Shown here in pieces: positions 21,072 to 53,440 of a DNA stretch of 64,000 nt. Under the pieces are notes generated by a model, which saw only the letters and a program-made list of their open reading frames with translations, made no database searches and was not told the origin of the DNA. Both the position numbers and the translations under genes were made by a program. This DNA comes from a virus (lineage: Duplodnaviria > Caudoviricetes), in the IMG/VR virus record IMGVR_UViG_3300026311_000012, positions 1 to 64,000 of that record. One strand, written 5' to 3'. Each line of letters starts with the position of its first letter. Position 1 is the first letter of the stretch.

Positions 21072-21212
21072 ATGAAAAAGAAAAATCGTATACTAGCAAT
21101 AATAGGTTTTATAGCTTTTATTCTTGGATTTATAGCAGAGCCTATATATGTTCCATTTGTATTTATTGGATTAGTATTAATAATATTTGGAATTGCACTT
21201 GAATATGAATAA
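21072..21212 (+). CDS. Small 2-TM membrane protein (46 aa)
   Basis: Not on the track: MKKKNRILAIIGFIAFILGFIAEP... Confidence 0.65.
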   Translation: MKKKNRILAIIGFIAFILGFIAEPIYVPFVFIGLVLIIFGIALEYE

Positions 21213-21438
21213 AGTATTTAACATAGGAGATTTAGTCCAAAGCGTTAATTCAGGTAATATTGTCAAAGTGACAAGAGATGAAGGAAAAGATTCTTTTTTT
21301 TTCGCTGGAGAAGTTGTAATTTCTACTAAAGGTAAAGGATTTTCTTATTATAAACCAGGATATAAATCTAGTGAATGGATTAAAATGTTCTTTAAAATGT
21401 ATAAACCAGTTTCATTTAATAAAATGAAAATAATATGA
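21205..21438 (+). CDS. KOW/SH3-like small protein, KMKII tail
   Basis: FNIGDLV motif; ATG at 21205 preferred to the TTG on the track. Confidence 0.65.
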   Translation: MNKVFNIGDLVQSVNSGNIVKVTRDEGKDSFFFAGEVVISTKGKGFSYYKPGYKSSEWIKMFFKMYKPVSFNKMKII

Positions 21439-21539
21439 AAACATCAGTAAAAGGAGGAATTATGGCTTTTATAGTCATTGCCTTATGTATAATTATTGCT
21501 TATCTTATCTGGTCTAATCCGGGAACAATCATTAACTAA
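21435..21539 (+). CDS. Single-TM micro-protein (34 aa)
   Basis: ...IAYLIWSNPGTIIN; paralog of 22473. Confidence 0.6.
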   Translation: MKTSVKGGIMAFIVIALCIIIAYLIWSNPGTIIN

Positions 21540-21634
21540 CAAATATCTCAGAAGACTAAAAATTATTTGGTTGAACACAATTTAGAACCAGATTTTGTAC
21601 CCCAATCCAGGGCGGTATGACTCATGTTATATTT

Positions 21635-21719
21635 GCCCCAGTGTCGTAATTGGTAGCCGAGACAGACTTAAAATCTGTTGATTCTTGTGGTCGTGGAGGT
21701 TCAAGTCCTCTCTGGGGCA
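21635..21719 (+). tRNA. tRNA-Leu(TAA)
   Basis: GCCCCAG/CTGGGGC acceptor, ACAGA-CTTAAAA-TCTGT anticodon arm, long variable arm, GGTTCAAGTCC. Confidence 0.9.
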
Positions 21720-21957
21720 CACGTTTTTAATCATTTTAAATATTAACTAAACTGTAATGCTATGGATAAACTTACATGGGTACATATATTAGATATGCGT
21801 ATGATTCAAGAATGTAATATTATCTTGAAATATAAATATACACGTAAAAGAATAAAAAAATGAAAAAATATTATGCTGAAATAATCGCAATAATAGTAAT
21901 GTTATTTTTTATTTCTATTACTATATATGCTTGTATATTTTTATAAAATAAAATAAG

Positions 21958-22251
21958 ATGCGAGATACAATTTTATTAAAAAAAGGTCAAAAAATACGTA
22001 TAAAACCATTTGATCAATGTCTTGAAGAAGGATATATCTTCTCTTCTGATGAAGATGCATATTGGGAATTTGAAAATGTAAAAAATAATCCAGGAGCAAG
22101 TAAATCTATGACTAAATATTTTGGTGGTATTTATACATTTCTTAGTTATAGTTTTGACTATTACGTATTACTTAAAGAAATTCCTGGGTATGTATGGCCT
22201 ATTGAGGTATTAGACCTACCTATGTCTTTATCTAAATTAAAAATATTATGA
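21958..22251 (+). CDS. KOW-like small protein, KLKIL tail
   Basis: LKKGQKIRIK. Confidence 0.65.
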   Translation: MRDTILLKKGQKIRIKPFDQCLEEGYIFSSDEDAYWEFENVKNNPGASKSMTKYFGGIYTFLSYSFDYYVLLKEIPGYVWPIEVLDLPMSLSKLKIL

Positions 22252-22460
22252 AAACTAAAAATGATTTAATTAATTGGTCAAGATTCTTTTTGTTTATAGT
22301 TATAATATTAGTTGTCAACATAATAGTATATTTAATGACAGCTTTTGTAACTTGGGAAGCTAATCCATCTTTTTGGGATATAAAAGCTAGATTTATAACT
22401 ATACTTAGTATGGTAGTTCTTGACGTAGGAATATTGTTTTTATATTTAGATGAATCTTAA
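22248..22460 (+). CDS. 2-TM membrane protein
   Basis: 70 aa, two hydrophobic stretches. Confidence 0.65.
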   Translation: MKTKNDLINWSRFFLFIVIILVVNIIVYLMTAFVTWEANPSFWDIKARFITILSMVVLDVGILFLYLDES

Positions 22461-22472
22461 AAACCTACAAAT

Positions 22473-22574
22473 ATGAAAAAAGAAAAAGATTATAGTACAT
22501 TGATTGTAATAGGGCTGTTAATGGCAGCAGGTATAGTGGCTTACATAATGTGGACTAATCCTGGAACACTATGA
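22473..22574 (+). CDS. Single-TM micro-protein (33 aa)
   Basis: ...VAYIMWTNPGTL. Confidence 0.6.
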   Translation: MKKEKDYSTLIVIGLLMAAGIVAYIMWTNPGTL

Positions 22575-22807
22575 AAAAGCTATTGTTTATATTAGCTATC
22601 GCATGTATATTTTCATGTGAACCAATGGAATCTCCTGTGGATAAATGTGTAACATGTACAATACATGTATACAGTCCATCTAAACTGATGCCTGACAGGT
22701 ATTCAACTAAAGAACTATGTACAGATGAAGAAAAAGCTAAATATCCAGTAGGAGTGCATGCTTCAATTGCTTGTGATGATTGTAGAGTTCAAACAGGATG
22801 TATATGA
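22571..22807 (+). CDS. Cys-rich lipoprotein
   Basis: MKKLLFILAIACIFSC lipobox; six further Cys. Confidence 0.7.
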   Translation: MKKLLFILAIACIFSCEPMESPVDKCVTCTIHVYSPSKLMPDRYSTKELCTDEEKAKYPVGVHASIACDDCRVQTGCI

Positions 22808-23103
22808 AAACATTTCTTGTTATTTTATTGATTATTGCTATTATATTATTTATAATATATGGGCAATATATAGAACTTAAATACAGAGAAAGTAAAAAAG
22901 CTTTGTTAAATGATCTGAAGACATTTTCTTATTTTGTAGGAAATTGTAAAATCACTTCTGAAAATAAAGAATTAATATTAACTCGTATTAAGGAATATCG
23001 ATCTAAAAATGTTCTTTATGAATCTAAAGAATATAGCGATCTAATATTTGACATATTTACATTATATGTTAAAAGATTTTATAAGACTGAGACTACTCTT
23101 TAA
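22798..23103 (+). CDS. Membrane-anchored hypothetical protein
   Basis: N-terminal TM helix. Confidence 0.6.
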   Translation: MYMKTFLVILLIIAIILFIIYGQYIELKYRESKKALLNDLKTFSYFVGNCKITSENKELILTRIKEYRSKNVLYESKEYSDLIFDIFTLYVKRFYKTETTL

Positions 23104-23383
23104 GCTAGTCTACAGGGGTGCGTCTGTTCTAACGCACAAGATGATATTTCACACCAATTTGTTTCCGATTTTGTTTATTGGTGGAGAGTATAAATCTGAT
23201 ATATATCAGAGGTGGCAGCATATATTGTTGATTGTTTATTGTGTATTAGGGTTAGAGATTTAATTATAATTGTTTTATTATGCAATAATATATGCCTTAG
23301 TTATAGTAATATATCTAAGTAGCTAGAAATAGCATTGTGCGAGGGATAGGATGTCTATCCCTAATACTTTAAATAATAATGTT

Positions 23384-23611
23384 ATGAAAATTCTATGTAT
23401 AAATGATAGACAATTTAATATTAATAAAAATAAATATAGTATTAAAAAAGCAAAATCTATTACTAAAAATAATATATATACTATAGATAAAATAGAAAAA
23501 GTAAATGGCGAAAAACACTATTGGATTACAACAGATAGTGGTTGGAAAAATTATTATCATCATAGCAGATTTATAAAATTATCTTTACCAAACAAACTAA
23601 AATTACTGTAA
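23384..23611 (+). CDS. SH3-like small protein, KLKLL tail
   Basis: MKILCIND...ITKNNIYTI...YWITTDSG; resembles the N-terminus of 29353. Confidence 0.6.
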   Translation: MKILCINDRQFNINKNKYSIKKAKSITKNNIYTIDKIEKVNGEKHYWITTDSGWKNYYHHSRFIKLSLPNKLKLL

Positions 23612-23943: not shown

Positions 23944-24063
23944 ATTAAAATCCTAGGAATAAAGTATAATATTGAAATTGAGGTCGTTGAAAACAATCCT
24001 TATATTTGATATAAGAAAGTGAGTATATCGAGAGTGAAAGTAGAATATTAACTTTTAGGTGAT

Positions 24064-24135
24064 AGCGGGGTAGAGCAGTGGTAGCTCGTGAGTTTCATAA
24101 TCTCAAGGCCGATAGTTCGAATCTATCCCCCGCTA
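24064..24135 (+). tRNA. tRNA with CAT anticodon (Met; Ile2 not excluded)
   Basis: AGCGGGG/CCCCGCT acceptor, TTCATAA loop, GTTCGAATC; T-T mismatch closing the anticodon stem. Confidence 0.85.
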
Positions 24136-24168
24136 CTAGTATTAACTATAAATATAATATTTAAAAAT

Positions 24169-24441
24169 ATGTTTACTTCATACCCAACTAAAATATATAC
24201 TTCGAATATTAAATATAGAAAATATATTGAAAAAGTATTAGGAATTGATGACAGATATCATTATTTAAATGAATTATGCAGTAAGTGTGGATACCCAAGA
24301 GGACCTCATTATTATCTTAATGGCAATACTTCCATATGTCCAACAAAAGAGGATGTAGAAAAAGATAGATATGGAATGTTTGAAAATCCTAATCTAATAC
24401 CTGAGTTTTATAAATCTCTTACTTTAATTAAAATATTATAA
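24169..24441 (+). CDS. CxxC-H-C zinc-finger protein, LIKIL tail
   Basis: LCSKCGYPRGPHY...CPT; ATG at 24169 (the track start lies inside the tRNA). Confidence 0.65.
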   Translation: MFTSYPTKIYTSNIKYRKYIEKVLGIDDRYHYLNELCSKCGYPRGPHYYLNGNTSICPTKEDVEKDRYGMFENPNLIPEFYKSLTLIKIL

Positions 24442-24442
24442 T

Positions 24443-24667
24443 ATGTTTACACCATATAGACCAGAAAGAATTCATTGTCAATATTTTGATAAAATACATG
24501 ACTTTGAAGATTCTGATTTTACAATGAGCAAGCTATGTAGAAAATGTGGTTATCCATATGGTTTACATTATGGAAACAAATGTCCTACTCGAAAAGATAT
24601 TGCAGATAGAGAAATATTACCGGAATTTCATTTAAGTATTGATAAATCATTATTAAAAGTATTATGA
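24443..24667 (+). CDS. CxxC-H-C zinc-finger protein, LLKVL tail
   Basis: LCRKCGYPYGLHYGNKCPT; tandem paralog of the previous gene. Confidence 0.7.
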   Translation: MFTPYRPERIHCQYFDKIHDFEDSDFTMSKLCRKCGYPYGLHYGNKCPTRKDIADREILPEFHLSIDKSLLKVL

Positions 24668-25014
24668 AAGCAAAAACTAATTTATTCTATCCAAACACAA
24701 AATTAGAATTTACTAATTCATGCTTAAAAATACATGTATGTTTATGTATATCTAAAGATGTATATATTGTATTAAAAAATTTGGGTAAAAGATGTAAAAA
24801 AACAAAATATCGTTATACGGTATCTTTAATTTTTGCCACTAAAGATTACTCTAGAGACAATATTATACGAATTCAGGACTTTCTCCTTACTCAGTTAATG
24901 AAATTGATTAGAGAGGCTAAAAAAGGTATGTTAGAGCAATCTATTAATAATTTATCAAATGAATTAAATAGAAAAGTTAAATTTAATCACGATCAACAAT
25001 TAAAATTATTTTAA
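24664..25014 (+). CDS. Hypothetical protein with beta-clamp-like C-terminus
   Basis: Ends QQLKLF. Confidence 0.6.
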   Translation: MKAKTNLFYPNTKLEFTNSCLKIHVCLCISKDVYIVLKNLGKRCKKTKYRYTVSLIFATKDYSRDNIIRIQDFLLTQLMKLIREAKKGMLEQSINNLSNELNRKVKFNHDQQLKLF

Positions 25015-25016
25015 TT

Positions 25017-25370
25017 ATGAGTATTCCGACTCACATAAGAATGAGGGAGATTGAATTAGGTGAAATATCTAAACCTAGATCTAAACATATCCCAATTGTT
25101 CATGAAGATGAAATATCTGGTTTAAGAAGAGAACCAAAAGAAAAAAAGATGTTGTATTTTTATAAGTTTAAATATGAAATACAATCACCAAATGGTATAC
25201 CTACTTCATTTATTACGAAAGAAGGGGAAAAAGATATTCATGTTAAATGTAATACTAATCTATCTAAAGCTGAAGTTGATAAGATGGCATTAAAAAAACT
25301 TGAATCATCTTTCTTTAGTAATGAACGATTAATTGATAGCAAAATACTATTCAAGAAGAAAATATTTTAA
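25017..25370 (+). CDS. Hypothetical protein
   Basis: 117 aa, ends KKKIF. Confidence 0.6.
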   Translation: MSIPTHIRMREIELGEISKPRSKHIPIVHEDEISGLRREPKEKKMLYFYKFKYEIQSPNGIPTSFITKEGEKDIHVKCNTNLSKAEVDKMALKKLESSFFSNERLIDSKILFKKKIF

Positions 25371-25376: not shown

Positions 25377-25449
25377 TGTCCTGTGGTGTAATTGGCAACA
25401 CGTCTCACTTTGAATGAGAAGAGTTCAAGTTCAAATCTTGGCAGGACAA
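25377..25449 (+). tRNA. tRNA-Gln(TTG)
   Basis: TGTCCTG/CAGGACA acceptor, TCTCA-CTTTGAA-TGAGA arm, GTTCAAATC. Confidence 0.85.
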
Positions 25450-25494
25450 CTAAATGTGAAAAGCAGCATAAAAGATGCCAAAAAAATTCATACA

Positions 25495-26406: not shown

Positions 26407-27126
26407 ATGAAAAGAGAAGAATTACTTACAGATGCGATGCTGTTTTTTTCTCCGAATGAGAGAAGCATAACAGTAGAAAATGGAGCAAGATATTACCGGG
26501 AAGATGTTGTTTTAAAAGCAATGGAATTAGCCGGTAAAGAAACGCCACTCCCTCCCGCCGAGGGTGCGGAGGAGATTTTACATAAATATGTTCACACAAT
26601 AAATAGTGATGGAACGTCCTTAGTTACATTTATGGGAGCTTTAAAAGCCATGCGTGAGTTTGCCGCCCAGCAGAAGCCCACATCATCGGCCACGGCAGAG
26701 GAGATACTTCAAAAGTATATGGACATGAGTATGATAATATGCCCTCTCCATGTAGTACCCAGAACCGTTGCGTTGGATGCCATGCACGAGTTTGCCGCCC
26801 TCCAAAACAAGCCCCAGCCGACAGCCGAGGGTGCAGAGGAGATAAAAACACTGGTAACACAATGGGAACAATTCAAAAATGAAAGATGGTGGAATAGTGA
26901 AGCCATTGATGTATTGGCGGTTCTTATAAATGAATTTTCATTATCTGCGGGTTATTCCTTACGCCATGATGCCACCCTCCACGCCCAGAAGATAGCCGAT
27001 AAGATGGTGGAGGAGAGGTTAGAAATCGAGCTGATAAAGTATGATACATGGTTATGTTCGCATAGTGACGTTGTAATATCAAAGCACTACAATATTAATG
27101 AATACCTTAAAAGCAGAGAGAAATGA
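26407..27126 (+). CDS. Hypothetical protein with internal repeats
   Basis: Repeated AEEIL.KY...AM.EFAA modules. Confidence 0.65.
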   Translation: MKREELLTDAMLFFSPNERSITVENGARYYREDVVLKAMELAGKETPLPPAEGAEEILHKYVHTINSDGTSLVTFMGALKAMREFAAQQKPTSSATAEEILQKYMDMSMIICPLHVVPRTVALDAMHEFAALQNKPQPTAEGAEEIKTLVTQWEQFKNERWWNSEAIDVLAVLINEFSLSAGYSLRHDATLHAQKIADKMVEERLEIELIKYDTWLCSHSDVVISKHYNINEYLKSREK

Positions 27127-27341
27127 TAAAAGAAGTAACAATGTTTGCAATGTTCTGCGATAACTGTGGCAAACAGTGCGATGATGAAGACGCTGGTATT
27201 TGTGCGTGGAGCGATGAAGTAGGAGCAAGGGAATCGGCTTGTGAAAGCGGATGGTATAACGATGATGATAAATACTATTGCCCTGACTGCTATTCTTTTG
27301 ATGATGATGACAACCTTGTACTTAAAACTATTGAGCCATGA
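27123..27341 (+). CDS. Zn-finger small protein
   Basis: CDNCG...GW...YCPDC. Confidence 0.65.
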   Translation: MIKEVTMFAMFCDNCGKQCDDEDAGICAWSDEVGARESACESGWYNDDDKYYCPDCYSFDDDDNLVLKTIEP

Positions 27342-27652
27342 CACCATCAGATAAACTCAGAGAGATAGTTGAGAAGACGTTTCCGCTTTTTGGATCAAGA
27401 CTTGACGAATGGAGGGAGGTGGAGCGAGACAGGCTTCTTTCCGACCTCACCGCCCTCATCAGCGAACACTATGTAGAAAAGAAAGATGCAGGCTACCCGC
27501 TTGAATTTGTTGAGTGGCTGATTAAAGATCAGGAGATATTCTTCGGTGAATTAAATGAGGAGTATATACTCAATGATAACATCCATATAGGAGGACGTAA
27601 ATTACAAACTATTGATGAACTTTATGAATACTGGAAGGAGAACGAGCAATGA
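27338..27652 (+). CDS. Hypothetical protein
   Basis: EFVEW...TIDELYEYW, a common phage motif. Confidence 0.6.
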   Translation: MTPSDKLREIVEKTFPLFGSRLDEWREVERDRLLSDLTALISEHYVEKKDAGYPLEFVEWLIKDQEIFFGELNEEYILNDNIHIGGRKLQTIDELYEYWKENEQ

Positions 27653-27933
27653 AGAAAATAGGGATGTTGCGAGTTATCAGAAGAATACGGAATATTCCAC
27701 GATTTATAATCGAATCATTTACATGGGAATACGAAAGCTGTATAATATGTGGTAATAGTTTTCGGATAAGATGGCAAGTAAAAGATGAATTATGGCAAAA
27801 GGTTATGAACGTTACAGATGAAACAGGAGGCTCTTTATGCTTGGATTGTTTTATCAAAAAAGCTGAACAAAAAGGAATCACCATAAATCAATGTGACATA
27901 GAAATGGAAATTTTTAAAACTAACGAGCCATGA
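27649..27933 (+). CDS. Zn-finger small protein
   Basis: CIICG...LW...LCLDCF. Confidence 0.65.
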   Translation: MKKIGMLRVIRRIRNIPRFIIESFTWEYESCIICGNSFRIRWQVKDELWQKVMNVTDETGGSLCLDCFIKKAEQKGITINQCDIEMEIFKTNEP

Positions 27934-28118
27934 AAGAACTAACAAGAAACAAACTCCTTGCTGCATGGCAATACTGTGATGATGAGGACAAATCAACAGA
28001 ATTTATGATACAATTTATGATGGATAATGCGAAGGTTGATATGGATTGTGTTGTAAATTTTATTGAGAAAACAACTGATGAAGAAAGAGTTGAATGGCTT
28101 AAAAACATAAAGCAATGA
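27930..28118 (+). CDS. Hypothetical protein
   Basis: 62 aa, ATGA-coupled. Confidence 0.6.
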   Translation: MKELTRNKLLAAWQYCDDEDKSTEFMIQFMMDNAKVDMDCVVNFIEKTTDEERVEWLKNIKQ

Positions 28119-28465
28119 AAGAACTTGGAATAACAAAGGGAGAATGGCAGTATCGTGACCATTTTTCAGACGGCATAATTGAAACAGAAGAAACTATTAT
28201 TGGGCATTTAATGAAGTGGGGTAGCCCTGAAGATGAGTTGCAGTCTAATGCCATATTAATCATTGACGCCGGTAACACCGCCCAGAAGTGTGGCTTACTA
28301 CCCTCTGAGCTACTTCGGCAGCGGGATGAACTGAGGGAGGCGTTTAATCAGATGAGACAGTATTGGAGTTTAATTGACAGTGAGGCAGATGCGGAGCAAA
28401 TAGCAGGGAGTTTGTGGGAGGTATTAGCAATCGCTGAAGCCGCAATCAAAAACACAGATGGTTAG
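28115..28465 (+). CDS. Hypothetical phage protein (TxGxW...NAxLI family)
   Basis: ITKGEW...NAILIIDAG...PSELL. Confidence 0.65.
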   Translation: MKELGITKGEWQYRDHFSDGIIETEETIIGHLMKWGSPEDELQSNAILIIDAGNTAQKCGLLPSELLRQRDELREAFNQMRQYWSLIDSEADAEQIAGSLWEVLAIAEAAIKNTDG

Positions 28466-28477
28466 CGGCAGCGCTTG

Positions 28478-28571
28478 CACCTAACGGTCGGCAATATGAA
28501 ACGGTTGCCTTGTAGTTCGTTTCACAATATAGATGCAGTTTCTGGCAACTGTTTTATATTGCTTGTTATAG
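28478..28571 (+). repeat. attC-like palindromic recombination site
   Basis: CCTAAC...19-bp imperfect arms (28491..28509 / 28544..28562)...GTTATAG. Confidence 0.55.
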
Positions 28572-28590
28572 CCAGTTAATTTTTAAAACT

Positions 28591-28821
28591 ATGTATAAAA
28601 AAGTAGAAACAGACAAAAAAGCCGTTTTAAATAACGGAGTAGAATTTACACCAGTTGCAACATTAGAAAGTGAAAACGGTGGTAGATGTCAAATTAGTAT
28701 TGATGACCATTGTTATAAGTTATCGTTAAAACAGGAAGATGGGACATATAAGACAACCCCATATATTTTTCCAGAGGCTTTTTTGGTTTTACGAGAACTA
28801 CCTGAATTGACTATGCCTTAA
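28591..28821 (+). CDS. Cassette-borne hypothetical protein
   Basis: 76 aa, bracketed by GTTATAGCCAGTTAA and TTAATTGGCTATAAC. Confidence 0.65.
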   Translation: MYKKVETDKKAVLNNGVEFTPVATLESENGGRCQISIDDHCYKLSLKQEDGTYKTTPYIFPEAFLVLRELPELTMP

Positions 28822-28896
28822 TTGGCTATAACTATGTTATATGTACACTAAAGGTTAACATATAAAACCATGGATAGAAAATAAAAACACCGAGAG

Positions 28897-29163
28897 ATGA
28901 AAGAGAAGATCGACGAACTCCCAATCATGATTTGCGAATGCAATTCATACGAACATCAGATTCATGTTTGGCATGAACCCGAGAGTGATGAGCTATATTT
29001 TGAAATACATCTTACTACCCGTCACGGCTTACTTTGGAGGTTATGGCGTGCCTTTAAGTACACCTTCGGCTATAAGTCGAGATATGGAGATTGGGATGAG
29101 TTTCTCATGAAGCCGGAGGACAGAAAAAAGTTGCTTGAGTTTTTAAAACAAACGGTGAGATGA
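28897..29163 (+). CDS. Hypothetical phage protein
   Basis: ICECNSYEH...RLWRAFKYTFGYKSRYG. Confidence 0.65.
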   Translation: MKEKIDELPIMICECNSYEHQIHVWHEPESDELYFEIHLTTRHGLLWRLWRAFKYTFGYKSRYGDWDEFLMKPEDRKKLLEFLKQTVR

Positions 29164-29327
29164 AAGAGAAAATACCAGAGGAACTCCGCAAAGAATTTGA
29201 GCAGGCAGTCTTAAATGCGGATTTGGATCATTGGATGGTGGATAACGATCGCCAATTCTTAGATAAGATTTGGGACGCAGTTGACAAGCTGTTCAATCAG
29301 GAGGTGGAGAAACGGATGTTAAAATAA
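29160..29327 (+). CDS. Hypothetical protein (55 aa)
   Basis: Not on the track; ATGA-coupled MKEKIPEELRKEF... Confidence 0.55.
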   Translation: MKEKIPEELRKEFEQAVLNADLDHWMVDNDRQFLDKIWDAVDKLFNQEVEKRMLK

Positions 29328-33461: not shown

Positions 33462-33989
33462 ATGGAATATTTTAGTAAACTAACAATTGACAAAGAAAAA
33501 AAAATATTAATTTTAAATGAAGAAGCTCTTCAGAGTTTAGATGCTGACTCTGGAAATGCTAAAATAATAATATTAGCACCTTTAAAAGAAGAAGGTGCAG
33601 ATGAAAAAGCACTTTATCTCATTAATGTTAAAGGATCTAGTATCGGTTCTGATAAAGAAGAAAATAAATATTTACAAGAAATTTTTCCACTTGATAAAGT
33701 AAGATCAATAGAAATAATTAATGATGAAGAACCGCATGGTATCGTTAGTATTTCAGATGATGTTATTAAATCATTTGAAAAAGTTTTTGGAGACAAAGCT
33801 GAAGAATTTAAATTGGCATACCAAGAGAATGTTGTTGGAGATATGAAAGCCCTTAAAGACATTTATGGAGTAAATGGAATTTATCATAAAATAACTAAGA
33901 TAACGTTTAAAAAAAATGTTATTGGTAAATCAAATGATGTAGAAAGTGTTGAAGAGATAGTTAAACTTACAAAAACAGAAACAGTATGA
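33462..33989 (+). CDS. Hypothetical protein
   Basis: 175 aa in the replication operon. Confidence 0.6.
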   Translation: MEYFSKLTIDKEKKILILNEEALQSLDADSGNAKIIILAPLKEEGADEKALYLINVKGSSIGSDKEENKYLQEIFPLDKVRSIEIINDEEPHGIVSISDDVIKSFEKVFGDKAEEFKLAYQENVVGDMKALKDIYGVNGIYHKITKITFKKNVIGKSNDVESVEEIVKLTKTETV

Positions 33990-34564
33990 GTTATGAAGTA
34001 AAAAAAGGTGGGGCTTATAAGCCAATGGTTATTACGAGTGAAAATGCAATTAGTGAAGGTAGATATCTTAACCGTATCGAGTTTAGAAAAACTGAGAAGG
34101 CTAAGTGGTTAACATTGGAGGTGAAAGATAAAGATGGAGGTATAGCAAGAAAGTCCTACTTTGAGCCCAAAATGGGTAACTTTATAGACACACCTGAAAA
34201 ACTTGCAAAAGAACAAGGTAAATTTAGTGGAGTAATGCGTAGCTTAACAAGAGCTATGCTTTCTGATAATTATGAAACTGGTAAAATAGATTCTTTTGAA
34301 GAATTTTGTCTTAAAATACAACACGATATTCCTGATAGTCTTTTTAATAAAGAACTCAGAGTAAAATGTATTTATGACAAGAATAACAATCCTTCACTTC
34401 CTAATTTTGGGGTAGTGTTTGAAGATCCTACAAAAGTTCCTCTTGAACAGAGTAAAATAAGAATATCAGATAGAGATATAGTAGAAAAAATAGAAGTAGA
34501 CGAAGATGTTGCAGATGTTCCTACTACTACAGCTCCTATTACGAAAGATGATTTACCTTTTTAG
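33986..34564 (+). CDS. Putative ssDNA-binding protein
   Basis: Acidic tail ending DDLPF; next to the Sak4-like ATPase. Confidence 0.7.
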   Translation: MSYEVKKGGAYKPMVITSENAISEGRYLNRIEFRKTEKAKWLTLEVKDKDGGIARKSYFEPKMGNFIDTPEKLAKEQGKFSGVMRSLTRAMLSDNYETGKIDSFEEFCLKIQHDIPDSLFNKELRVKCIYDKNNNPSLPNFGVVFEDPTKVPLEQSKIRISDRDIVEKIEVDEDVADVPTTTAPITKDDLPF

Positions 34565-34589: not shown

Positions 34590-34664
34590 AGTATGGTAGC
34601 TTTAATTGGATTAGAGTCCTGACTTTTAATCAGGGGGGTGTGGGTTCGAGTCCCACCCATACTT
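34590..34664 (+). tRNA. tRNA-Lys(TTT)
   Basis: AGTATGG/CCATACT acceptor, CCTGA-CTTTTAA-TCAGG, GGTTCGAGTCC. Confidence 0.85.
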
Positions 34665-34668
34665 CTGA

Positions 34669-34828: not shown

Positions 34829-34901
34829 GCTTCCTTAGCTCAGTTGGTAGAGTGTCTGATTTGTACTCAGAAGGTCGTAGGTTCGATGCCTGCAGGAAGC
34901 T
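34829..34901 (+). tRNA. tRNA-Thr(TGT)
   Basis: GCTTCCT/AGGAAGC acceptor, TCTGA-TTTGTAC-TCAGA, GGTTCGATGCC. Confidence 0.9.
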
Positions 34902-34915
34902 CTAAAAAATAAAAT

Positions 34916-35878
34916 ATGTATGAAATTTCTGCTGATTTATCAAAGGAGAATCTATTATCTAGAATAGATAGTTATAGTATATTTAAATACTATTGTCCTA
35001 ATTTTAAAAAAATAAATAAACCATTTAAATCACCTTTCCATGAAGACAAGCACCCAAGTGCATTTATTATATATTATGAAGGTGATTTTTTATTTAAAGA
35101 TTTTGGTGGAGACTCTTTAAGAGCTATAGATTTTGTAATGAAAATGTATAATCTTTCATTTAGAGATGCTCTTGAAAAAATAAATTATGATTTTGGATTA
35201 GGATTAAGTGGAAAAGAAGGAACTAATGTTGAAATTCCTGAATTAGATGATACTATAGTATACGAGAAAACTACATCCATTATTAAAATAAAAAGAAGAG
35301 ATTGGAACGAAAAAGATTTATCCTATTGGGGCAGCTTTGGAATAGGATATAAAACTTTGAACAAGTTTAATGTAGTTCCGATCTCTTACTTTTCTATTAA
35401 TGAATATATGTATAAAGCTGAAGAATTGGCCTATTCATATGAGTATTATTGGGAAGATAGTATATTTAGAAGAAAAATATATCAACCACTGTCTAAAAAT
35501 AAATGGTATAGTAATGGAGGAAATGTAGTTCAAGGAGAAGGAGTACTTCCAAAATTTGGTGAATTGTTAATAATAACATCGTCCTTAAAGGATGTTATGA
35601 CATTATATGAATTAGGATACATTGCAATAGCTCCTACATCTGAATCTACTTTTGTTCCAGATACTTATTTTGAAAAACAACACAAAAGATTTAAAAAGAT
35701 TATTCTTTTTATGGATTCTGATACTACTGGAATAAAACGTAGTTTAGAATTAAATAGAAAATGGGGGTTAGACTATATTTTAATTCCAAAGGAGTATAAT
35801 AAAAAAGATATATCTGATTATAGTAAAACATTTGGAAAAGAAATGACTAAATTATTATTAAAAACATTAATAAGATGA
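34916..35878 (+). CDS. DnaG-type primase
   Basis: SPFHEDKHPS..FKDFG; TOPRIM SSLKD and FMDSD.TG, KDISD. Confidence 0.85.
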   Translation: MYEISADLSKENLLSRIDSYSIFKYYCPNFKKINKPFKSPFHEDKHPSAFIIYYEGDFLFKDFGGDSLRAIDFVMKMYNLSFRDALEKINYDFGLGLSGKEGTNVEIPELDDTIVYEKTTSIIKIKRRDWNEKDLSYWGSFGIGYKTLNKFNVVPISYFSINEYMYKAEELAYSYEYYWEDSIFRRKIYQPLSKNKWYSNGGNVVQGEGVLPKFGELLIITSSLKDVMTLYELGYIAIAPTSESTFVPDTYFEKQHKRFKKIILFMDSDTTGIKRSLELNRKWGLDYILIPKEYNKKDISDYSKTFGKEMTKLLLKTLIR

Positions 35879-36246
35879 GGTATTTAATTAAAGACAAACT
35901 TTTTGAAATATTACTAGAGTTTTCAAAAGGTACACCACATTATTCTTTAGATGTAATTATTATAAAAAAAGTACCAAAACCATATGTAGGACATGGAAAA
36001 ATATTTCAAATATATGATGAGGATAATGTAGTTGCAGTTACTGTAGCTTCTGTAAGATCTTCTGAAATTAATACTACTTCTAATGAATTAGAAATATATT
36101 TAAATGGAGTAAATGATCATATGAATAGTTCTACAATACATGCAACATTATGGAATCTACATAATAAAGATATTTATCATATTTTTAAATTACTAAAACA
36201 ATATTCATGTAATTCTTTTAAAAAATTAAAATATTATGATATTTAA
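35875..36246 (+). CDS. Hypothetical protein
   Basis: 123 aa; ends KKLKYYDI (one A short of KKLKIL-stop). Confidence 0.6.
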   Translation: MRYLIKDKLFEILLEFSKGTPHYSLDVIIIKKVPKPYVGHGKIFQIYDEDNVVAVTVASVRSSEINTTSNELEIYLNGVNDHMNSSTIHATLWNLHNKDIYHIFKLLKQYSCNSFKKLKYYDI

Positions 36247-36538
36247 GTTAGGTGATATAGTTAAAGTTACAAAGAAAGAATATACATATGGTAGGTATGA
36301 TATAATCTTTAAATTATTTAATTTTAAAAATGAAGAAATAAATGAATGGAATAACTATTCTAGTAAAGAAACTGAATTATTTCAAATAACAAATTTAATT
36401 GAACATCCTCATCAGTATGAAGAAATTAAAATAATATTATATAAAATAGTTGGATTAATAACACGAAGAGAATTTTTAATAGATCAAAGAGGTTTAAAAT
36501 TAATAAAATCTTATAATTTTAAATTAAAAATAATATAA
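36236..36538 (+). CDS. KOW-like small protein, KLKII tail
   Basis: FKLGDIVKV; paralog of 36924. Confidence 0.65.
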   Translation: MIFKLGDIVKVTKKEYTYGRYDIIFKLFNFKNEEINEWNNYSSKETELFQITNLIEHPHQYEEIKIILYKIVGLITRREFLIDQRGLKLIKSYNFKLKII

Positions 36539-37630: not shown

Positions 37631-37644
37631 TAAATATAAATAAT

Positions 37645-37758: not shown

Positions 37759-38513
37759 TGTACGCACAAGTAAGAACAAAAAATCCAACTGCTGCTCCTC
37801 TTAGAAGGAGTATTATTGTTCCTAGACGTTCTGTAGTAAGACTCGGATCTAGAACTGCCACTGAAGCCTGTTTTCCTGGCCGTAGAGACATTATAGAGGT
37901 TAATACAGTAGATAGTATTGAAAACAGTAGAGATAAGCTTAGAATGAAAGAATGCTTCTCTAGATTTGATGTACCACAAGCTGAGTGGTGGAGAATATCT
38001 GAAATTCCAGAAAGATTAGAATTTCCATTAGTAGGAAAGCAAATAGTAGGTTTTAAAGGGCATGGAATGAGATTAATTGAAAATGAAGAACAATTAAGAA
38101 CATTTCGTACAACCCATCTGAGTGGTTACTTTATAGAGAAATTCTATAATTATGCTCGTGAATACCGATTACATACTACAAGAGATCATGTATTCTTATC
38201 ATGGAGAAAACTTAGAAGATCTGATGCCACCGAGAGGTGGTTTTTTAATTCTACTAACTGTAATTGGGTAGGAGAAGCTCATGAATTATTTCAAAGACCT
38301 GATAATTGGAGTGAACTTGAAGCTTCTGCCATAAATGCAGTAAGAGCAGTTGGTCTTGACATTGGTGCTGTAGATATAAGAGTACAATCAAGAAGCAACC
38401 CAGATTATATAGTATGTGAAGTAAATAGTGCTCCTGCGTTGGGAGATATTGGAATTGAAACATATAGAAACGAAATTAGAAATATAATAATTAATAAAAG
38501 CAATGACAGATAG
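37758..38513 (+). CDS. ATP-grasp peptide ligase (RimK-like)
   Basis: DKLRMKE, EYRLH, GLDIGAVDI, CEVNSAP. Confidence 0.85.
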   Translation: MYAQVRTKNPTAAPLRRSIIVPRRSVVRLGSRTATEACFPGRRDIIEVNTVDSIENSRDKLRMKECFSRFDVPQAEWWRISEIPERLEFPLVGKQIVGFKGHGMRLIENEEQLRTFRTTHLSGYFIEKFYNYAREYRLHTTRDHVFLSWRKLRRSDATERWFFNSTNCNWVGEAHELFQRPDNWSELEASAINAVRAVGLDIGAVDIRVQSRSNPDYIVCEVNSAPALGDIGIETYRNEIRNIIINKSNDR

Positions 38514-44149: not shown

Positions 44150-44341
44150 ATGAAATACTTAAAAATTCGAGTGCCAGAAATGTCTTGTGAAGGGTGTATA
44201 TTTTTTATAAAATCCTCAGAAGGAGCATGTAGAAATGTTACTCATAGTATACTAAATGAAGATTGTGTAAGTATAAATAGAGATGGTCATTTTACAAATT
44301 ATATATTTAAAATAAAATATGATAAATTAAAAATACTATGA
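44150..44341 (+). CDS. Cys-rich small protein, KLKIL tail
   Basis: SCEGCIF...C...C. Confidence 0.6.
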   Translation: MKYLKIRVPEMSCEGCIFFIKSSEGACRNVTHSILNEDCVSINRDGHFTNYIFKIKYDKLKIL

Positions 44342-45911: not shown

Positions 45912-46128
45912 TATAAAGAGATGTCATGTATGCCATGGAGATAATTTAATTGAAACTCATCTTGTTATAGAAGATTTATTTGGTAATGTCTTTGAAAGAC
46001 CTGTTAAAATTTGTAAAGATTGTGATACCATACATTATGTTCATAATAATTCTGTATTTTATGAATTTTCTTTAAAAGTAAATAAATCTTATAAACCAAA
46101 AGAAAAAATAATTTATACAGATGAATGA
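45898..46128 (+). CDS. Zn-ribbon small protein
   Basis: CHVC...CKDC. Confidence 0.6.
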   Translation: MNIYDIKRCHVCHGDNLIETHLVIEDLFGNVFERPVKICKDCDTIHYVHNNSVFYEFSLKVNKSYKPKEKIIYTDE

Positions 46129-46330
46129 AGGTTATGAGTATAGTGGTACTTCTACTAGTAGTACTACATATAGCAATGAAGAAAATCTTTATTCATGGAT
46201 TGGATATGAAGAATATCAATTTTACAATAGAATAAAAGATAGATATTTATTATATAGAATTGATCCATTTTTTGAAGAATCTAAATCAGATACATTAAAA
46301 AATAATACAAAACTTTTAAAAATATTATGA
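46121..46330 (+). CDS. Small protein, LLKIL tail
   Basis: 69 aa, coupled to the RNR gene. Confidence 0.55.
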   Translation: MNEGYEYSGTSTSSTTYSNEENLYSWIGYEEYQFYNRIKDRYLLYRIDPFFEESKSDTLKNNTKLLKIL

Positions 46331-48749: not shown

Positions 48750-49331
48750 ATGCGTATAAAACACTTATTGTTGACATTAGTTATTGTATCAATATCTTTT
48801 AATCTACATGCCCCAATTAGAGTTGTCGACATTACAGAAGAAATAGAAATGTACAATAAAGTACAAAAAGAAAATAAATATTTTAAACTCTATAAAGAGT
48901 CATTAATTGTCTTGAAAGAGTTTGAAGGATTTAGTCTAACTTCGTATATTGATGTCAATGGTAAGTCTATAGGATACGGTCATCACATACAAAAATACGA
49001 AAATATTCCCAATATTATTACTGAAGAATATGCAGAAATATTATTAAGAATTGATTTTGAACATGCAATAAGTACTGTTGAGCAACTTACCGAACTTGAT
49101 AGATTTAATAATCCAGAAAAAGTATTAGCATTAGCTCACTTTGTTTATAATCTAGGATCTGGTAATTTTGCCAACAGTACTTTATTACAAAATGTTAAAA
49201 ATAATAAATGCATAGCTTCAGAAATTATTAAATGGACTAAAATAAAAGTAGATAATACTATTATATATAGTAATCACTTATATAAAAGAAGACTTTATGA
49301 ATTAATGTTATACCAAAATGACCAGATATAA
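48750..49331 (+). CDS. GH24 lysozyme with N-terminal signal
   Basis: FEGF..Y.D...SIGYGH, FVYNLG, STLL, RR. Confidence 0.8.
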   Translation: MRIKHLLLTLVIVSISFNLHAPIRVVDITEEIEMYNKVQKENKYFKLYKESLIVLKEFEGFSLTSYIDVNGKSIGYGHHIQKYENIPNIITEEYAEILLRIDFEHAISTVEQLTELDRFNNPEKVLALAHFVYNLGSGNFANSTLLQNVKNNKCIASEIIKWTKIKVDNTIIYSNHLYKRRLYELMLYQNDQI

Positions 49332-49551
49332 AAAGAATGATGAAGTAAAAATCATAAATAATACGGTAGGTCATGGATTTAAAAACGGAGAAATTGTAAA
49401 AATAACTCATGTAGATAAATATTATAATTATCGTACTAAAAAAACAATAGATGAATATGTAGCTACAAGCTTAAAATCTGGAGAAAGGTATTGGATTCAT
49501 AATGATGATGTTACTCCAACAAATGTATGTAAAAAGTTGAAAATATTATGA
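49318..49551 (+). CDS. KOW-like small protein, KLKIL tail
   Basis: YKKNDEVKII...FKNGEIVKI. Confidence 0.65.
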   Translation: MTRYKKNDEVKIINNTVGHGFKNGEIVKITHVDKYYNYRTKKTIDEYVATSLKSGERYWIHNDDVTPTNVCKKLKIL

Positions 49552-51404
49552 CACTGTGGTTTTATGATTTGGAAGTATTAGGAAAATCATTTTTTTCAGG
49601 AACATTTATAAATTCTAAAACAAATGAATTAGTCCAATTATATAAATTAAATGATACAGAATATAATCTAGATAAATTATCTTATTTTACAAATGAAGCG
49701 TTTTTAATAGGGTACAATAATAAAATGTATGATGATCCTATTATGAATATGATTAGAAAAGAAGGAGTTAATACTAATAAGATATATGAACTATCTCAAG
49801 AATTGATTAATTCACAAAGAACTGGTATACCTGTATGGAAAAATGATAAAATACTTCCTTATCTAAGATATGGTGTTAAGTCATTAGATTTAATGAAAAT
49901 TTTAGCATTTGATAAGCAAAAGGTGAGTCTTAAACAATGTGCAGTAAATCTGCATCATCCAATCATACAAGATCTCCCTTTTGCTTATAATTATGATCCT
50001 CTTCCTGAAGATATACCTACTATCCTTAAATATAATAAAAATGATGTAGATATTACTATTCGATTATTCAAATCTATTAAAGAAGAAATTGAATTAAGAA
50101 TAGATTATTCTAATGAATATAGAGTAGATGTATTAAATGCATCTAGAACATATATAGGAAAACAAACTTTAAATAATTATTACGAAAAGCATACTGGGTT
50201 AACTATTTGGGATTTTAAAGATAAACGTACACATCGTAGTATAATTCATGTAGGCGAATGTATTTCTGATAAAATAGTGTTTAAGTCAAAAGAAATGAAC
50301 ACTATGCTTGATTATTTTAAAAAATACTCTGTTAAACAAATAGATGATGGTATAAATTATCTTGTTTTGTTTAATAACAAAGGTTATCAAATGGGTTTTG
50401 GAGGACTTCATTCTGTTGATAGACCTAAAATATATACATCTACTGATGATTTATATATACTCGATGGAGACGTCGATTCATATTATCCAAATGTAATGTT
50501 AAAGTATAAAATTAAACCAGCGCATGTAGAAAACGAATTTTTTGAAGCTCTCCAAATAATAACAGATAAACGATTAAAAGCAAAAGCTGAAAAGGATAAA
50601 ATAACGGCAGATACATTAAAAATTACTGTTAATTCTATATTTGGTCTTTTAAATTTTCCTAATTATTGGTTATATGATCCTAAAGCTGCTCTTTCTGTTA
50701 CAATAAATGGGCAAATGTTTTTATTAATGTTAATTGAAGCACTAGAGTTAGAAGGTTTTGAAGTAATTTCTGCAAATACTGATGGTGTTACTACAATAGT
50801 ACCAAAGGATAGATTTTATCAATATAAAGAAGTATGTAGAAAATGGGAAGAATACTGCAAGTTTAATCTATCTTTTACAAAATATTTAAAATATATACGA
50901 AGAGACGTTAATAATTATGTTAGTGAATCTGAATATGATATAAAACAAAAGGGATGCTTTCTAGCTAAACAAAAATTAGATAAAGGATATAACACCGCAA
51001 TAATACCTAAAGCTTTAAATAATTATTTTCTTAAAGGAATTCCTGTAGAAGAAACAATAACATCTGGTACAGATATATTTGACTATTGTTTAAGTGAAAA
51101 AACAGGATCACAATTTGTAATGGAGTATCATTACTTAGATGGAGATCAAAAAATAATCCAACGTTTACAAAAAACTAATAGATTTTTTATATCCAAATCT
51201 GGTGGTACTTTAATGAAACATAAAAACGATGATACTTATCATAATGCAGCACTTGGTTGGACTGTAACATTATTAAATGTTTATGAAGAAGATAAGTTAA
51301 AAGAGTATTTAAGTAATATAGATTACAAATATTATGTTTCAGAAGCTAGAAAAATAATCGAACAAATAGAAGAAAAACAATTAACATTAGATATATGGAA
51401 ATAG
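49548..51404 (+). CDS. Family B DNA polymerase
   Basis: Exo motifs YDLE, YNNKMYD, YNKND; pol motifs DVDSYYPN, KITVNSIFG, ANTDG; clamp-like KQLTLD tail. Confidence 0.9.
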   Translation: MTLWFYDLEVLGKSFFSGTFINSKTNELVQLYKLNDTEYNLDKLSYFTNEAFLIGYNNKMYDDPIMNMIRKEGVNTNKIYELSQELINSQRTGIPVWKNDKILPYLRYGVKSLDLMKILAFDKQKVSLKQCAVNLHHPIIQDLPFAYNYDPLPEDIPTILKYNKNDVDITIRLFKSIKEEIELRIDYSNEYRVDVLNASRTYIGKQTLNNYYEKHTGLTIWDFKDKRTHRSIIHVGECISDKIVFKSKEMNTMLDYFKKYSVKQIDDGINYLVLFNNKGYQMGFGGLHSVDRPKIYTSTDDLYILDGDVDSYYPNVMLKYKIKPAHVENEFFEALQIITDKRLKAKAEKDKITADTLKITVNSIFGLLNFPNYWLYDPKAALSVTINGQMFLLMLIEALELEGFEVISANTDGVTTIVPKDRFYQYKEVCRKWEEYCKFNLSFTKYLKYIRRDVNNYVSESEYDIKQKGCFLAKQKLDKGYNTAIIPKALNNYFLKGIPVEETITSGTDIFDYCLSEKTGSQFVMEYHYLDGDQKIIQRLQKTNRFFISKSGGTLMKHKNDDTYHNAALGWTVTLLNVYEEDKLKEYLSNIDYKYYVSEARKIIEQIEEKQLTLDIWK

Positions 51405-51910
51405 GTGATAAAGTTAAATTTAATATACATGTTCCAATCTCTGAAGATGGTAATACAAAATTAATAGATACTATTATTACTCATAGGTTAATAGATATTT
51501 CAACAAATGAAGAACAAAGTATTACTAGAAAGGTAAAAGTATCTCCTTGGAATATTACACAAACTGACTCAACAGTATCATGGAATATTAAAAAAATAAA
51601 AATACCGGAAAAAGAAGGAATATATATCGGATCATTAAGAAAAAAATTATCAAGATCTTATAAACGCAGAATACAATCTAGTATAACTGATACTCCAGTA
51701 ACTCCAGGGATTGGAAATCGGTTGTTTGAAGTTGAAGGGGTATCTCGTCCAAGACCCAGAAATTGGACTTCTAGAAATCCTAGAAGAATAGATAATCCAA
51801 ATAAATTAGACGAACTTGCTATAATTGCAGTATCTAAAAGTAAAAGATATGTTGTAGATATGAAAGATCTTGTCGAATACAATATAAAAAATAAAGTAAA
51901 AATAATATGA
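51395..51910 (+). CDS. Hypothetical protein, KVKII tail
   Basis: MEIGDKVKF. Confidence 0.65.
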   Translation: MEIGDKVKFNIHVPISEDGNTKLIDTIITHRLIDISTNEEQSITRKVKVSPWNITQTDSTVSWNIKKIKIPEKEGIYIGSLRKKLSRSYKRRIQSSITDTPVTPGIGNRLFEVEGVSRPRPRNWTSRNPRRIDNPNKLDELAIIAVSKSKRYVVDMKDLVEYNIKNKVKII

Positions 51911-52512
51911 AAACTATAAATATTGAAGACTCTAGTAAATTATACTTTACATCGGATTTACATTTTGGTCATGATAGAATAATAGAATATTGCAATAGAC
52001 CATTTAGTTCAGTTCATGAAATGAACAAAACTTTAACCAATAATTGGAATAGTGTAGTTGGACCTGATGATACTATAATAATAGCTGGAGATTTTTGTTT
52101 GGCCGGAAAACAGATGTGGGGTAAATATTTAAATCATCTAAATGGAATAAAAATATTAGTTGAAGGAAATCACGATCATAGGGTTCCAGAAGAATATTTT
52201 AAATTAGTAACTCAATTATTAAATTTAGATGTTTTAGATGTTGAAACTAATAAAAGACAAAGAATTACTGTATGCCACTATGCTATGTTATCTTGGTATC
52301 AATCGCATAGAGGAGCATGGCAATTATTTGGCCACTGGCATGGGAAAAGTCTTATAAATTCAGATAGAACAGATATTAAAGATTTTATTAAAGAGGAACA
52401 AACACAAGTAACAAAAGTTAATTATTCCCGACAATATGATGTAGGAGTAGATAATAATAATTATTACCCAATTTCTTACAAAGATATTAAAACTATACTA
52501 AATAAAAGCTAA
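51907..52512 (+). CDS. Calcineurin-like metallophosphoesterase
   Basis: SDLHFGH, GDF, GNHD, GHWH. Confidence 0.9.
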   Translation: MKTINIEDSSKLYFTSDLHFGHDRIIEYCNRPFSSVHEMNKTLTNNWNSVVGPDDTIIIAGDFCLAGKQMWGKYLNHLNGIKILVEGNHDHRVPEEYFKLVTQLLNLDVLDVETNKRQRITVCHYAMLSWYQSHRGAWQLFGHWHGKSLINSDRTDIKDFIKEEQTQVTKVNYSRQYDVGVDNNNYYPISYKDIKTILNKS

Positions 52513-53243
52513 TGGAAAAAATATTAACAATAGGAGATATACATGGAAAAGATGTATGGAAAAAATTGACATTAGATACGTATGATAAAGTCGTATTTAT
52601 TGGGGATTATGTAGATGCTTTTGATATATCAGACGATCAAATGGTTAATAATTTACTTGATATTATTGAATTTAAAAAAAGTAATCCTCATAATATTATA
52701 TTATTAATTGGAAATCACGAATTAAATTATTTTCCTAAGTTTGGATATAAGTTTTATGGGAGGAGTAGTGGATTTAGACCTCAATTAGAAAATGTTTTAA
52801 AAGACATCTTTGCAAAAAATATTAGATTATTTCAATATGCTTATCAATTATCAGATGATGTGAGAATATATCTTTGGACACATGCTGGAGTAAGCAATGG
52901 ATGGTATCATAAGGTATTCAAAACACAATTTGATTCAATAAACACAGTAATAGAGGACTCTATGAATTTAGCTGATAGAATGAATTTGTTGTTTGAAGAA
53001 AGATTTGATTGTATGACACAGGTAGGGTGGAAACGTGGAGGACAATATAAATATGGTTCTCCAATATGGGCTGACAAAAGTGAATTTTTATCAACAAGTA
53101 TTCCTTTACGTGGATACTATCAGATTGTAGGACATAATCCTGTTAAAGATATTAAAATACATATGGTAGACGATGATGCTACAATAGTATTTACTGATTG
53201 TCTGGGTAATAAAGAAAAAGGTTATATTATAAAAGTAACTTAA
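52512..53243 (+). CDS. Calcineurin-like metallophosphoesterase
   Basis: GDIHG, GDYVD, GNHE, THAG, VGH. Confidence 0.9.
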   Translation: MEKILTIGDIHGKDVWKKLTLDTYDKVVFIGDYVDAFDISDDQMVNNLLDIIEFKKSNPHNIILLIGNHELNYFPKFGYKFYGRSSGFRPQLENVLKDIFAKNIRLFQYAYQLSDDVRIYLWTHAGVSNGWYHKVFKTQFDSINTVIEDSMNLADRMNLLFEERFDCMTQVGWKRGGQYKYGSPIWADKSEFLSTSIPLRGYYQIVGHNPVKDIKIHMVDDDATIVFTDCLGNKEKGYIIKVT

Positions 53244-53248
53244 ATAAC

Positions 53249-53440
53249 ATGAGAATAATTAGAAAATGTCCCATTTGTAAATCTACTGATTTAGAATATT
53301 TGGCAAGAGCGAAATGGAATGAAAGTGAACAAAAATTTGAAATAATATATGTGGAAGATGGTTATCCATATTGTCCAAATTGTGGAGAACACATAAATGA
53401 AGATATAATAGAAATAACTAATTTAGTAAAAGTTTTATAA
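53249..53440 (+). CDS. Zn-ribbon small protein, LVKVL tail
   Basis: CPIC...CPNC. Confidence 0.65.
   Translation: MRIIRKCPICKSTDLEYLARAKWNESEQKFEIIYVEDGYPYCPNCGEHINEDIIEITNLVKVL

Follow-up and report, generated by a model that had tools for sequence, protein, structure and literature searches.

A shared C-terminal tail on small early proteins of a crAss-like phage clade, read as a candidate address tag

Introduction

The crAss-like phages are among the most abundant viruses of the gut and of the environment, and to our knowledge almost nothing is known of their small early proteins. The stretch analysed here (64,000 nucleotides of IMG/VR record IMGVR_UViG_3300026311_000012; hereafter the window) raises a question about such proteins, since a first-pass annotation of its sequence listed 13 small genes of different apparent folds that end in nearly the same few residues, typified by KLKIL-stop. 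Is this shared C-terminal tail a protein motif, or a by-product of the way in which the genes are packed, and if it is a motif, what could read it?

The window covers the opening 64 kb of a crAss-like phage genome of 99.9 kb, which has 32% GC and terminal repeats. The virion and giant RNA-polymerase proteins are encoded on the minus strand, and the early, accessory and replication genes occupy a plus-strand arm at about 19.2-53.4 kb. This arm includes a primase, a DnaB-like helicase, a Sak4-like annealing protein, a single-stranded DNA-binding protein (SSB), ribonucleotide reductase, a B-family DNA polymerase and phosphoesterases, together with a five-gene cluster of GGACT, RimK-like, COOH-NH2 ligase (COOH-NH2_lig), amidotransferase (GATase) and amidoligase genes.

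Enrichment of the tail and its distribution among relatives

The pentapeptides listed in the first-pass annotation are present at all 13 stops. When the tail was scored as K-h-h-stop, in which h is L, I, V, M or F, it was found on 15 of the 62 genes of the plus-strand module, whereas the frequency of the same tripeptides inside proteins predicts 0.5 (binomial p ~3 × 10−18). It is on none of the 57 minus-strand genes and on none of the genes of a GC-rich foreign island, as had been claimed for the structural genes and the island. The frequency also exceeds a null matched for junction type and built from the genome's own intergenic leaders, which would give K-h-h in 1-2% of ATGA junctions. At the nucleotide level, the 12-nt pattern AAANTNNTNTRA stands at 16 gene ends and occurs elsewhere at background density, and its 23 minus-strand copies are all away from gene ends. 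Chance or AT composition was rejected as a source of the tail on the enrichment, the leader null, the fixed order of residues and the rate in control phages (both given below). Thus, the enrichment and the stop-anchored pattern are confirmed.

Catalogued phages are distant from this genome. Megablast against them gave no match, the polymerase reaches no more than 34% identity with any of theirs, and the amidoligase shares 32% identity with its counterpart in Cellulophaga phage phi14:2. A search of IMG/VR with the polymerase returned distant relatives only, and an exact-motif scan of the same database returned scattered single matches and no more genomes of the clade that carries the tail. The comparison was therefore made with metagenomic loci around graded relatives of the polymerase. 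The tail occurs in each of the lineages with polymerase identities of 83, 76, 68, 59 and 57%, frequently on a larger number of genes than in the window, and in this clade of six lineages it is present on 60 of 199 open reading frames (ORFs) of the early arm, as against 9 of 498 control ORFs (Fisher p 9 × 10−27). The clade consensus is [F/N]-[K/N]-[K/N]-[I/L/V]-K-[I/V]-[L/I]-stop. The syntenic sister lineage L018/L117 (polymerase identity 52%) has nearly no small accessory genes and one tail in 29 genes, and more distant relatives (48%, ~40% and 35%) and phi14:2 have tails on 0-2% of their genes. Phage phi14:2 (0 of 60) infects a Bacteroidota host, has a GC content of 29% and shares the ligase cluster; since controls of this type are nearly free of tails, AT richness and the translation system of the host phylum do not produce the tail.

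The tail also comes in genome-specific flavours. In locus L003 it ends in I, in L006, L011 and L019 it ends in L, and L011 uses N-I-[K/Q]-I-L, a pattern that would fit co-evolution with one reader. No description of such a tail was found in the literature searched. A shared C-terminal recognition motif is a known kind of element; what appears to be new is the motif itself, the scale on which a crAss-like clade uses it, and the dual coding.

Proteins that carry the tail

The carriers had been described as proteins of unlike folds, and an all-against-all BLASTP comparison agrees, dividing the tail proteins of six loci into 37 groups. By eye, they comprise SH3/KOW-like beta domains, Cys4 zinc ribbons and others; Pfam assigned no family to any of the ten tail proteins submitted. 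A single paralogous family was rejected on these 37 groups and on the presence of folds as different as an SH3-like beta domain and a zinc ribbon. What the carriers do share is solubility: the tail is on 51 of 88 soluble small proteins and on 1 of 11 membrane-like ones (p 0.003).

AlphaFold models were obtained for two unrelated members and rest on shallow alignments, which makes them supportive rather than decisive. In the 171-amino-acid protein (mean predicted local distance difference test score, pLDDT, 80) residues 169-171 fall below 50 after the terminal helix, and in the 63-amino-acid zinc ribbon the last 12 residues are below 50. Both models place the tail outside the fold, at a C-terminal end of low confidence, and a role as a structural core strand was rejected on them. 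In its model, the 171-amino-acid protein (51395-51910) has a beta domain at the N-terminus, joined through a disordered linker (residues 94-116) to a small alpha/beta unit at the C-terminus; its family gave nothing from the ESM Atlas and no Foldseek match in the PDB.

Probable selection on the peptide

The first-pass annotation argued that selection acts on the peptide and not merely on the context of the next start codon. This argument gains support from terminal genes, stop anchoring, fixed residue order, controls, ortholog conservation and the lack of the tail on membrane proteins, and these comparisons of sequence make selection at the peptide level probable.

No start follows the final gene of the plus-strand operon, which nonetheless bears a tail in five of the six genomes (p 1 × 10−8 against the control rate), the tailed genes belonging to at least four unrelated families. 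Other tails stand ahead of spacers of 40-80 nt. Nucleotide information climbs from about position −19 with a three-base period and is at background at the first base past the stop. The codon at −4, which played no part in the definition of the tail, has T as its second base in 48 of 51 tails, whereas 10 of 51 have G or C as the first; from a generic A/U-rich leader the reverse tolerance would be expected. The residue order is fixed as well, for there are 28 ends of the form K-h-K-h-h and none in any of the nine other orders of two lysines and three hydrophobic residues, which are equally common inside proteins. In the intergenic leaders of control phages, 3 of 325 would give K-h-h in the ATGA frame; with this figure and the start-independent tails, the initiation context falls short as sole cause. 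Codon variation was reported earlier too, and the synonyms AAG, ATT, ATC, CTA, CTG, TTG, GTT and GTG all occur in tails.

Orthologs point the same way. In the 171-amino-acid family, 14 alignment columns are invariant across 16 homologs, the most divergent at 31% identity, and K169, the lysine at −3, is one of them. In a family of about 105 amino acids encoded after ribonucleotide reductase (29-33% identity), the tail lysines K96, K97 and K99 are three of only 10 invariant columns, and the tail FKK[LI]K[LIF][ILV] persists with all three kinds of junction, the next start overlapping it, abutting it or following after 42 nt. By these alignments the tail is among the best-conserved parts of fast-evolving families.

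A rival idea makes the motif a recombination junction of mobile cassettes, a short homology at which co-infecting phages would swap or insert small genes, each cassette bringing the motif with it. The small tail genes do come and go at gene junctions (36236-36538 and 36888-37758 are absent from locus L015, and L003 has an additional gene ahead of the polymerase), and one tail family sits at non-syntenic places. When the gene that precedes ribonucleotide reductase (46121-46330) is compared with its L003 counterpart, the body is unalignable and the last ~9 codons alone are conserved. Against this, just 3 of the 13 tail genes are flanked by a copy on the 5′ side, copies in the same genome have no more than 8-12 bases in common, no recombinase has a link to the tail, and vertically inherited families keep it under purifying selection. 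We regard cassette exchange as highly improbable.

A candidate address tag

At a probability of roughly 40%, we favour the reading in which the tail is a clade-specific C-terminal address tag for one shared partner, held by selection at the protein level, with docking as the favoured read-out. The tag would be a short linear motif at the free C-terminus of small, soluble, otherwise unrelated accessory proteins of the early and replication arm, hanging on a flexible protein end. One partner would read three features, namely the free carboxylate, the aliphatic end and the lysine at −3, and would thereby handle the whole set as a group, by docking on a common hub or, ranked next, by timed degradation. 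Hubs and proteases know their clients by signals of this type, a free and exposed peptide of set order on many unlike proteins. In most cases the same nucleotides would also serve, through an ATGA overlap, as the A-rich leader of the following cistron, which would shape the synonymous sites and probably seeded the motif. That there is a single reader, and which protein it is, we infer.

A tag of five to seven residues on about a third of the early-arm genes would give one experimental handle for the whole set, and lineage-specific C-terminal address tags are possibly a general feature of phage early proteomes.

Several observations weigh against the address tag, those that concern its possible docking partner being given with that partner below. 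Most of the loci compared cover only ~20 kb, and orthologs were counted more than once in some tallies. For the gene at 35875-36246, in which the tail is out of frame in the window, the tail-less form prevails in public assemblies, with 6 contigs as against 1 for the tailed form. The remaining points are at the nucleotide level. The lysine at −3 is AAA in 48 of 48 tails of the first set, so that synonymous sites are not free; ATA is over-used for isoleucine, and A is the third base of 73% of tail codons as compared with 45% of internal ones. Three untranslated copies of the motif stand beside start codons (Table 1), one of them the non-coding copy noted earlier at 20588-20604, which proves to be a real six-codon frame, PKLKIL-stop, with no start. 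Finally, the exact 18-mer is a plain leader at 61 of 81 ORF starts in unrelated AT-rich viruses.

These last points are what would be expected of a nucleotide junction element, in which AAANTAAAAATAWT-ATG-A acts as an efficient leader or termination-reinitiation context in a host without Shine-Dalgarno (SD) pairing, and the peptide is a by-product of the overlap. Bacteroidetes make no use of SD sequences even for reinitiation (PMC6728339), and A at −3, −6, −12 and −13 favours initiation in them (PMC6847099). About 70% of tails overlap the next start; in ATGA overlaps the third codon positions of the tail fall at −3, −6, −9 and −12 from that start, and A is enriched in third bases at −3, −6 and −12. 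In addition, A at every third position with A or T elsewhere leaves AAA, ATA and TTA as the only sense codons, that is, K, I and L. The Kozak-like A-rich context of Bacteroidetes thus coincides with the third positions and the lysine codons of the tail, but it is generic and unordered, produces no K-h-K-h-h pattern in control phages (tails at 1% with like hosts) and fails for tails with no start downstream, be it on terminal genes or ahead of long spacers. Conservation is anchored to, and ends at, the stop and not the ATG; first codon positions tolerate G or C and second positions do not tolerate A; the order of lysine and hydrophobic residues is fixed. Sixteen ATGA overlaps in the window genome, including all 10 on the minus strand, lack the tail, as do the genes for membrane proteins. 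The A-rich initiation context, which the first-pass annotation had offered as a partial explanation, therefore accounts for the A-enriched synonymous sites and the untranslated copies and leaves the terminal genes and the controls unaccounted for; as the whole explanation, a nucleotide element is unlikely.

The tail is accordingly read as dual-coded, a protein motif laid over an A-rich ATGA junction, from which it was probably born. It would make a clear case of dual coding, with one stretch of 15 nucleotides specifying a protein motif and also setting the context in which the next gene is initiated, and it suggests a route by which such tags arise.

The phage encodes five tRNAs: Leu-TAA (21635-21720), Met/Ile-CAT (24064-24136), Gln-TTG (25377-25450), Lys-TTT (34590-34665) and Thr-TGT (34829-34902). 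The tail codons TTA and AAA are read by Leu-TAA and Lys-TTT, and the A-ending codons CAA and ACA by Gln-TTG and Thr-TGT; the CAT tRNA would read ATA if it were modified with lysidine.

Possible readers of the tail

In phage T4, gp43, gp33 and gp55 bind gp45 through C-terminal tails. Partners of the bacterial beta clamp (DnaN) bind, by motifs that are often at the extreme C-terminus, to the cleft between its domains II and III. These two sets of proteins offer the closest likeness to an address tag of the docking kind, as a short aliphatic C-terminal peptide is common to unrelated proteins and one hub reads it. Docking of the tail on such a hub is our tentative choice of read-out, and the host beta sliding clamp is the most concrete candidate, because the B-family polymerase of these phages itself has a related end of the clamp-binding type. 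The ~620-amino-acid polymerases of the group end in KQLTLDIWK, KQLTLF, LQTSLF and KQLKLW (window 51381-51404; L001 6215-6907; L012 10001-11914; L019 2057-3907), and the ~850-amino-acid polymerases of the 40% relatives have no such ending. These ends agree in part, and QLTLF fully, with the clamp-binding rule Q-phi-x-[L/M]-[F/L], in which Asn at position 1 is tolerated with a modest loss (PMC11139829). A PF00712 search found no clamp gene in the phage, which together with the polymerase ends suggests that it uses the host beta clamp.

The tails themselves agree with clamp motifs at positions 2 and 5: among 60 tails, −4 is I in 29, L in 17 and V in 9, and −1, where Phe, Leu or Ile would be expected, is L in 34 and I in 18. 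K at position 3 is also found in the polymerase end QLKLW, and h-K-h-h is common to both. At the other positions they differ. Position 1, Gln in the known motifs, is K in 30, N in 16 and Q in 2 of the 60; position 4, Leu or Met in the known motifs, is I in 43, V in 7, L in 6 and F in 4; and the flanks, acidic or neutral in the known motifs, are basic and rich in K and N. The tails are not filed as clamp-binding motifs, because the rules on Gln, on Leu/Met and on flank charge fail, and the beta clamp as the hub is rather doubtful on these alignments. Equally doubtful is the view that the tail serves as an address code peculiar to these phages, with a dedicated reader that evolved within the clade, either a phage adaptor or enzyme or a host hub exploited anew. 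Such a code would allow the phage to place, modify or remove as one group a rapidly turning-over arsenal of 15-20 small accessory proteins, and a new gene would enter the set by gaining five codons, which an A-rich ATGA junction supplies nearly for free. Class II PDZ ligands have hydrophobic residues at P0 and P-2, and in the tails P-2 is a near-invariant lysine.

Another C-terminal docking peptide occurs within the same arm: the 192-amino-acid protein at 33986-34564 ends in an acidic tail of the SSB type, DDLPF, and its relatives end in DDLPF or ELPF.

Since the tail is exposed at a free C-terminus and confined to soluble cytoplasmic proteins, it might also be a degron, a basic-plus-aliphatic end read by a host AAA+ protease or unfoldase (ClpXP through C-motif 2, FtsH or Lon), so that small early proteins would share one short lifetime and be cleared as the programme moves on. 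K(−3)-aliphatic-aliphatic-COOH resembles the MuA tag RRKKAI recognised by ClpX (PMC5143411; PMC12723719), and species-specific C-terminal ClpX tags of three residues exist, such as LPF (PMC5143411). Like the tails, C-motif 2 of MuA and the LPF tag of S. mutans are short, species-specific, free and exposed, with lysine(s) and two aliphatic residues; 57 of 60 tails have K at −3 and follow the C-motif 2 pattern (basic, then aliphatic, at a free C-terminus), which is a resemblance only. None ends in Ala, as an ssrA-like C-motif 1 (L-A-A or A-A) would. ClpX tags differ in being known on single substrates, whereas the tails are on a third of a gene module. The tail is also carried by conserved replication-linked proteins such as the 171-amino-acid family, the genome flavours and the change of K to Q at −3 in L011 fit a highly conserved host pore poorly, and the sister lineage does without tails. 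On this comparison with known tags, a degron is unlikely.

RimK has a known substrate with an acidic C-terminus, which it extends by glutamates. Its relative in the five-gene cluster raises the further alternative that the tail is a substrate tag whose free carboxylate is modified by the phage ATP-grasp, COOH-NH2 ligase, amidoligase and amidotransferase enzymes. The cluster is present, tail genes sit inserted within it, and a K-h-h end is found on the small gene immediately ahead of the RimK-like gene, in the window and also in the sister lineage, which otherwise has no tails. The idea is weakened because the same five-gene cluster occurs without tails in phi14:2 (0 of 60) and with one in 29 genes in L117. 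The tail is basic and aliphatic, moreover, with no acidic residue in its last four positions, unlike the RimK substrate. We consider this reading very improbable.

In L117 (7211-8208), the gene in question encodes 79 amino acids and ends in ELKLL, at the site that matches the NLKFI gene of the window. The NLKFI peptide and the RimK-like gene (37645-38513) may form a pair of precursor and ligase, or may be the seed from which the tail arose.

Tail-bearing genes, motif copies and neighbouring features

The tail genes, their relatives and the motif copies are collected in Table 1. Of the related tails in the first-pass annotation, those with stops at 25014, 25370 and 44149 all read as described, but YIKLM at 44149 does not belong to the system: it closes a RusA-like resolvase, a family that ends in this way in tail-less phages too (PGVYIKIY in phi14:2).

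Table 1. Tail-bearing genes, related ends and motif copies in the window.
Feature	Position	Strand	Tail or end	Junction and remarks
77-amino-acid SH3/KOW-like protein	21205-21438	+	KMKII	ATGA overlap with 34-amino-acid membrane ORF
97-amino-acid protein	21958-22251	+	KLKIL	ATGA overlap
86-amino-acid protein	23351-23611	+	KLKLL	Final codon CTG; TAATG junction
90-amino-acid Cys-motif protein	24169-24441	+	LIKIL	TAA-T-ATG junction; tandem paralog of 24443-24667
74-amino-acid Cys-motif protein	24443-24667	+	LLKVL	ATGA overlap
116-amino-acid protein	24664-25014	+	QLKLF (related)	Perfect pentapeptide of the clamp-binding type (rule: PMC11139829)
117-amino-acid protein	25017-25370	+	KKKIF (related)	Followed by tRNA-Gln, not a cistron
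123-amino-acid protein	35875-36246	+	KKLKYYDI	Tail out of frame
100-amino-acid SH3-like protein	36236-36538	+	KLKII	TAA-ATG junction, then GGACT gene; not in L015
115-amino-acid protein	36888-37235	+	KIKII	ATGA overlap; not in L015
37-amino-acid Cys-rich peptide	37645-37758	+	NLKFI	TAATG junction with RimK-like ATP-grasp gene
63-amino-acid Cys-motif protein	44150-44341	+	KLKIL	Final codon CTA; ATGA overlap with exonuclease gene
69-amino-acid protein	46121-46330	+	LLKIL	ATGA overlap with ribonucleotide reductase
77-amino-acid SH3-like protein	49318-49551	+	KLKIL	AAG TTG AAA ATA TTA; ATGA overlap with DNA polymerase B
171-amino-acid conserved protein	51395-51910	+	KVKII	Adjoins polymerase
63-amino-acid zinc-ribbon protein	53249-53440	+	LVKVL	Closes plus-strand operon; no start downstream
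Untranslated motif copy	20585-20605	+	PKLKIL-stop	Frame without start; leader of gene 20602
Out-of-frame motif copy	20739-20765	+	RLILIKLL-stop	Right after gene 20602-20745, 4 nt ahead of gene 20770
Untranslated motif copy	36222-36239	+		Inside the end of gene 35875-36246

The gene at 35875-36246 had been described as one A short of an in-frame tail, and rightly so. At 36222-36246, an A6 run shifts the tail out of frame, and a near-identical metagenomic variant (P0138, 121 amino acids) ends in frame with SFKKIKIL. The A-run is polymorphic, because this natural variant ends in KKIKIL. The L015 ortholog ends in QKLTKLKII. Programmed frameshifting or slippage at the tail was rejected on a reading of the sequence, which lacks an X-XXY-YYZ heptamer and has A-runs of insufficient length, and stop-codon recoding was rejected as the late genes are open under code 11.

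At 20602-23103, seven small membrane or secreted proteins (33-101 amino acids), all without the tail, alternate with tailed soluble proteins. The ribonucleotide reductase and polymerase genes are uninterrupted in the window. In relatives, the former contains inteins (HNH or LAGLIDADG; loci L003 5082-8174, L009 5465-8818 and L011 10001-12797), and the polymerase of one relative is split by a GIY-YIG endonuclease gene.

The GC-rich foreign island (27100-29165) has a repeated junction of its own. Its five genes end in E-[YWIF]-[LWF]-K-x-x-x-x-stop (EYLKSREK, EYWKENEQ, EIFKTNEP, EWLKNIKQ and EFLKQTVR), four of the five with an ATGA overlap, and the downstream genes begin with MKE or MKK. At these junctions a nucleotide block, AAAACNNACGAGCN-ATGA, is partly conserved. 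This is a second, different gene-end motif shared within the same window.

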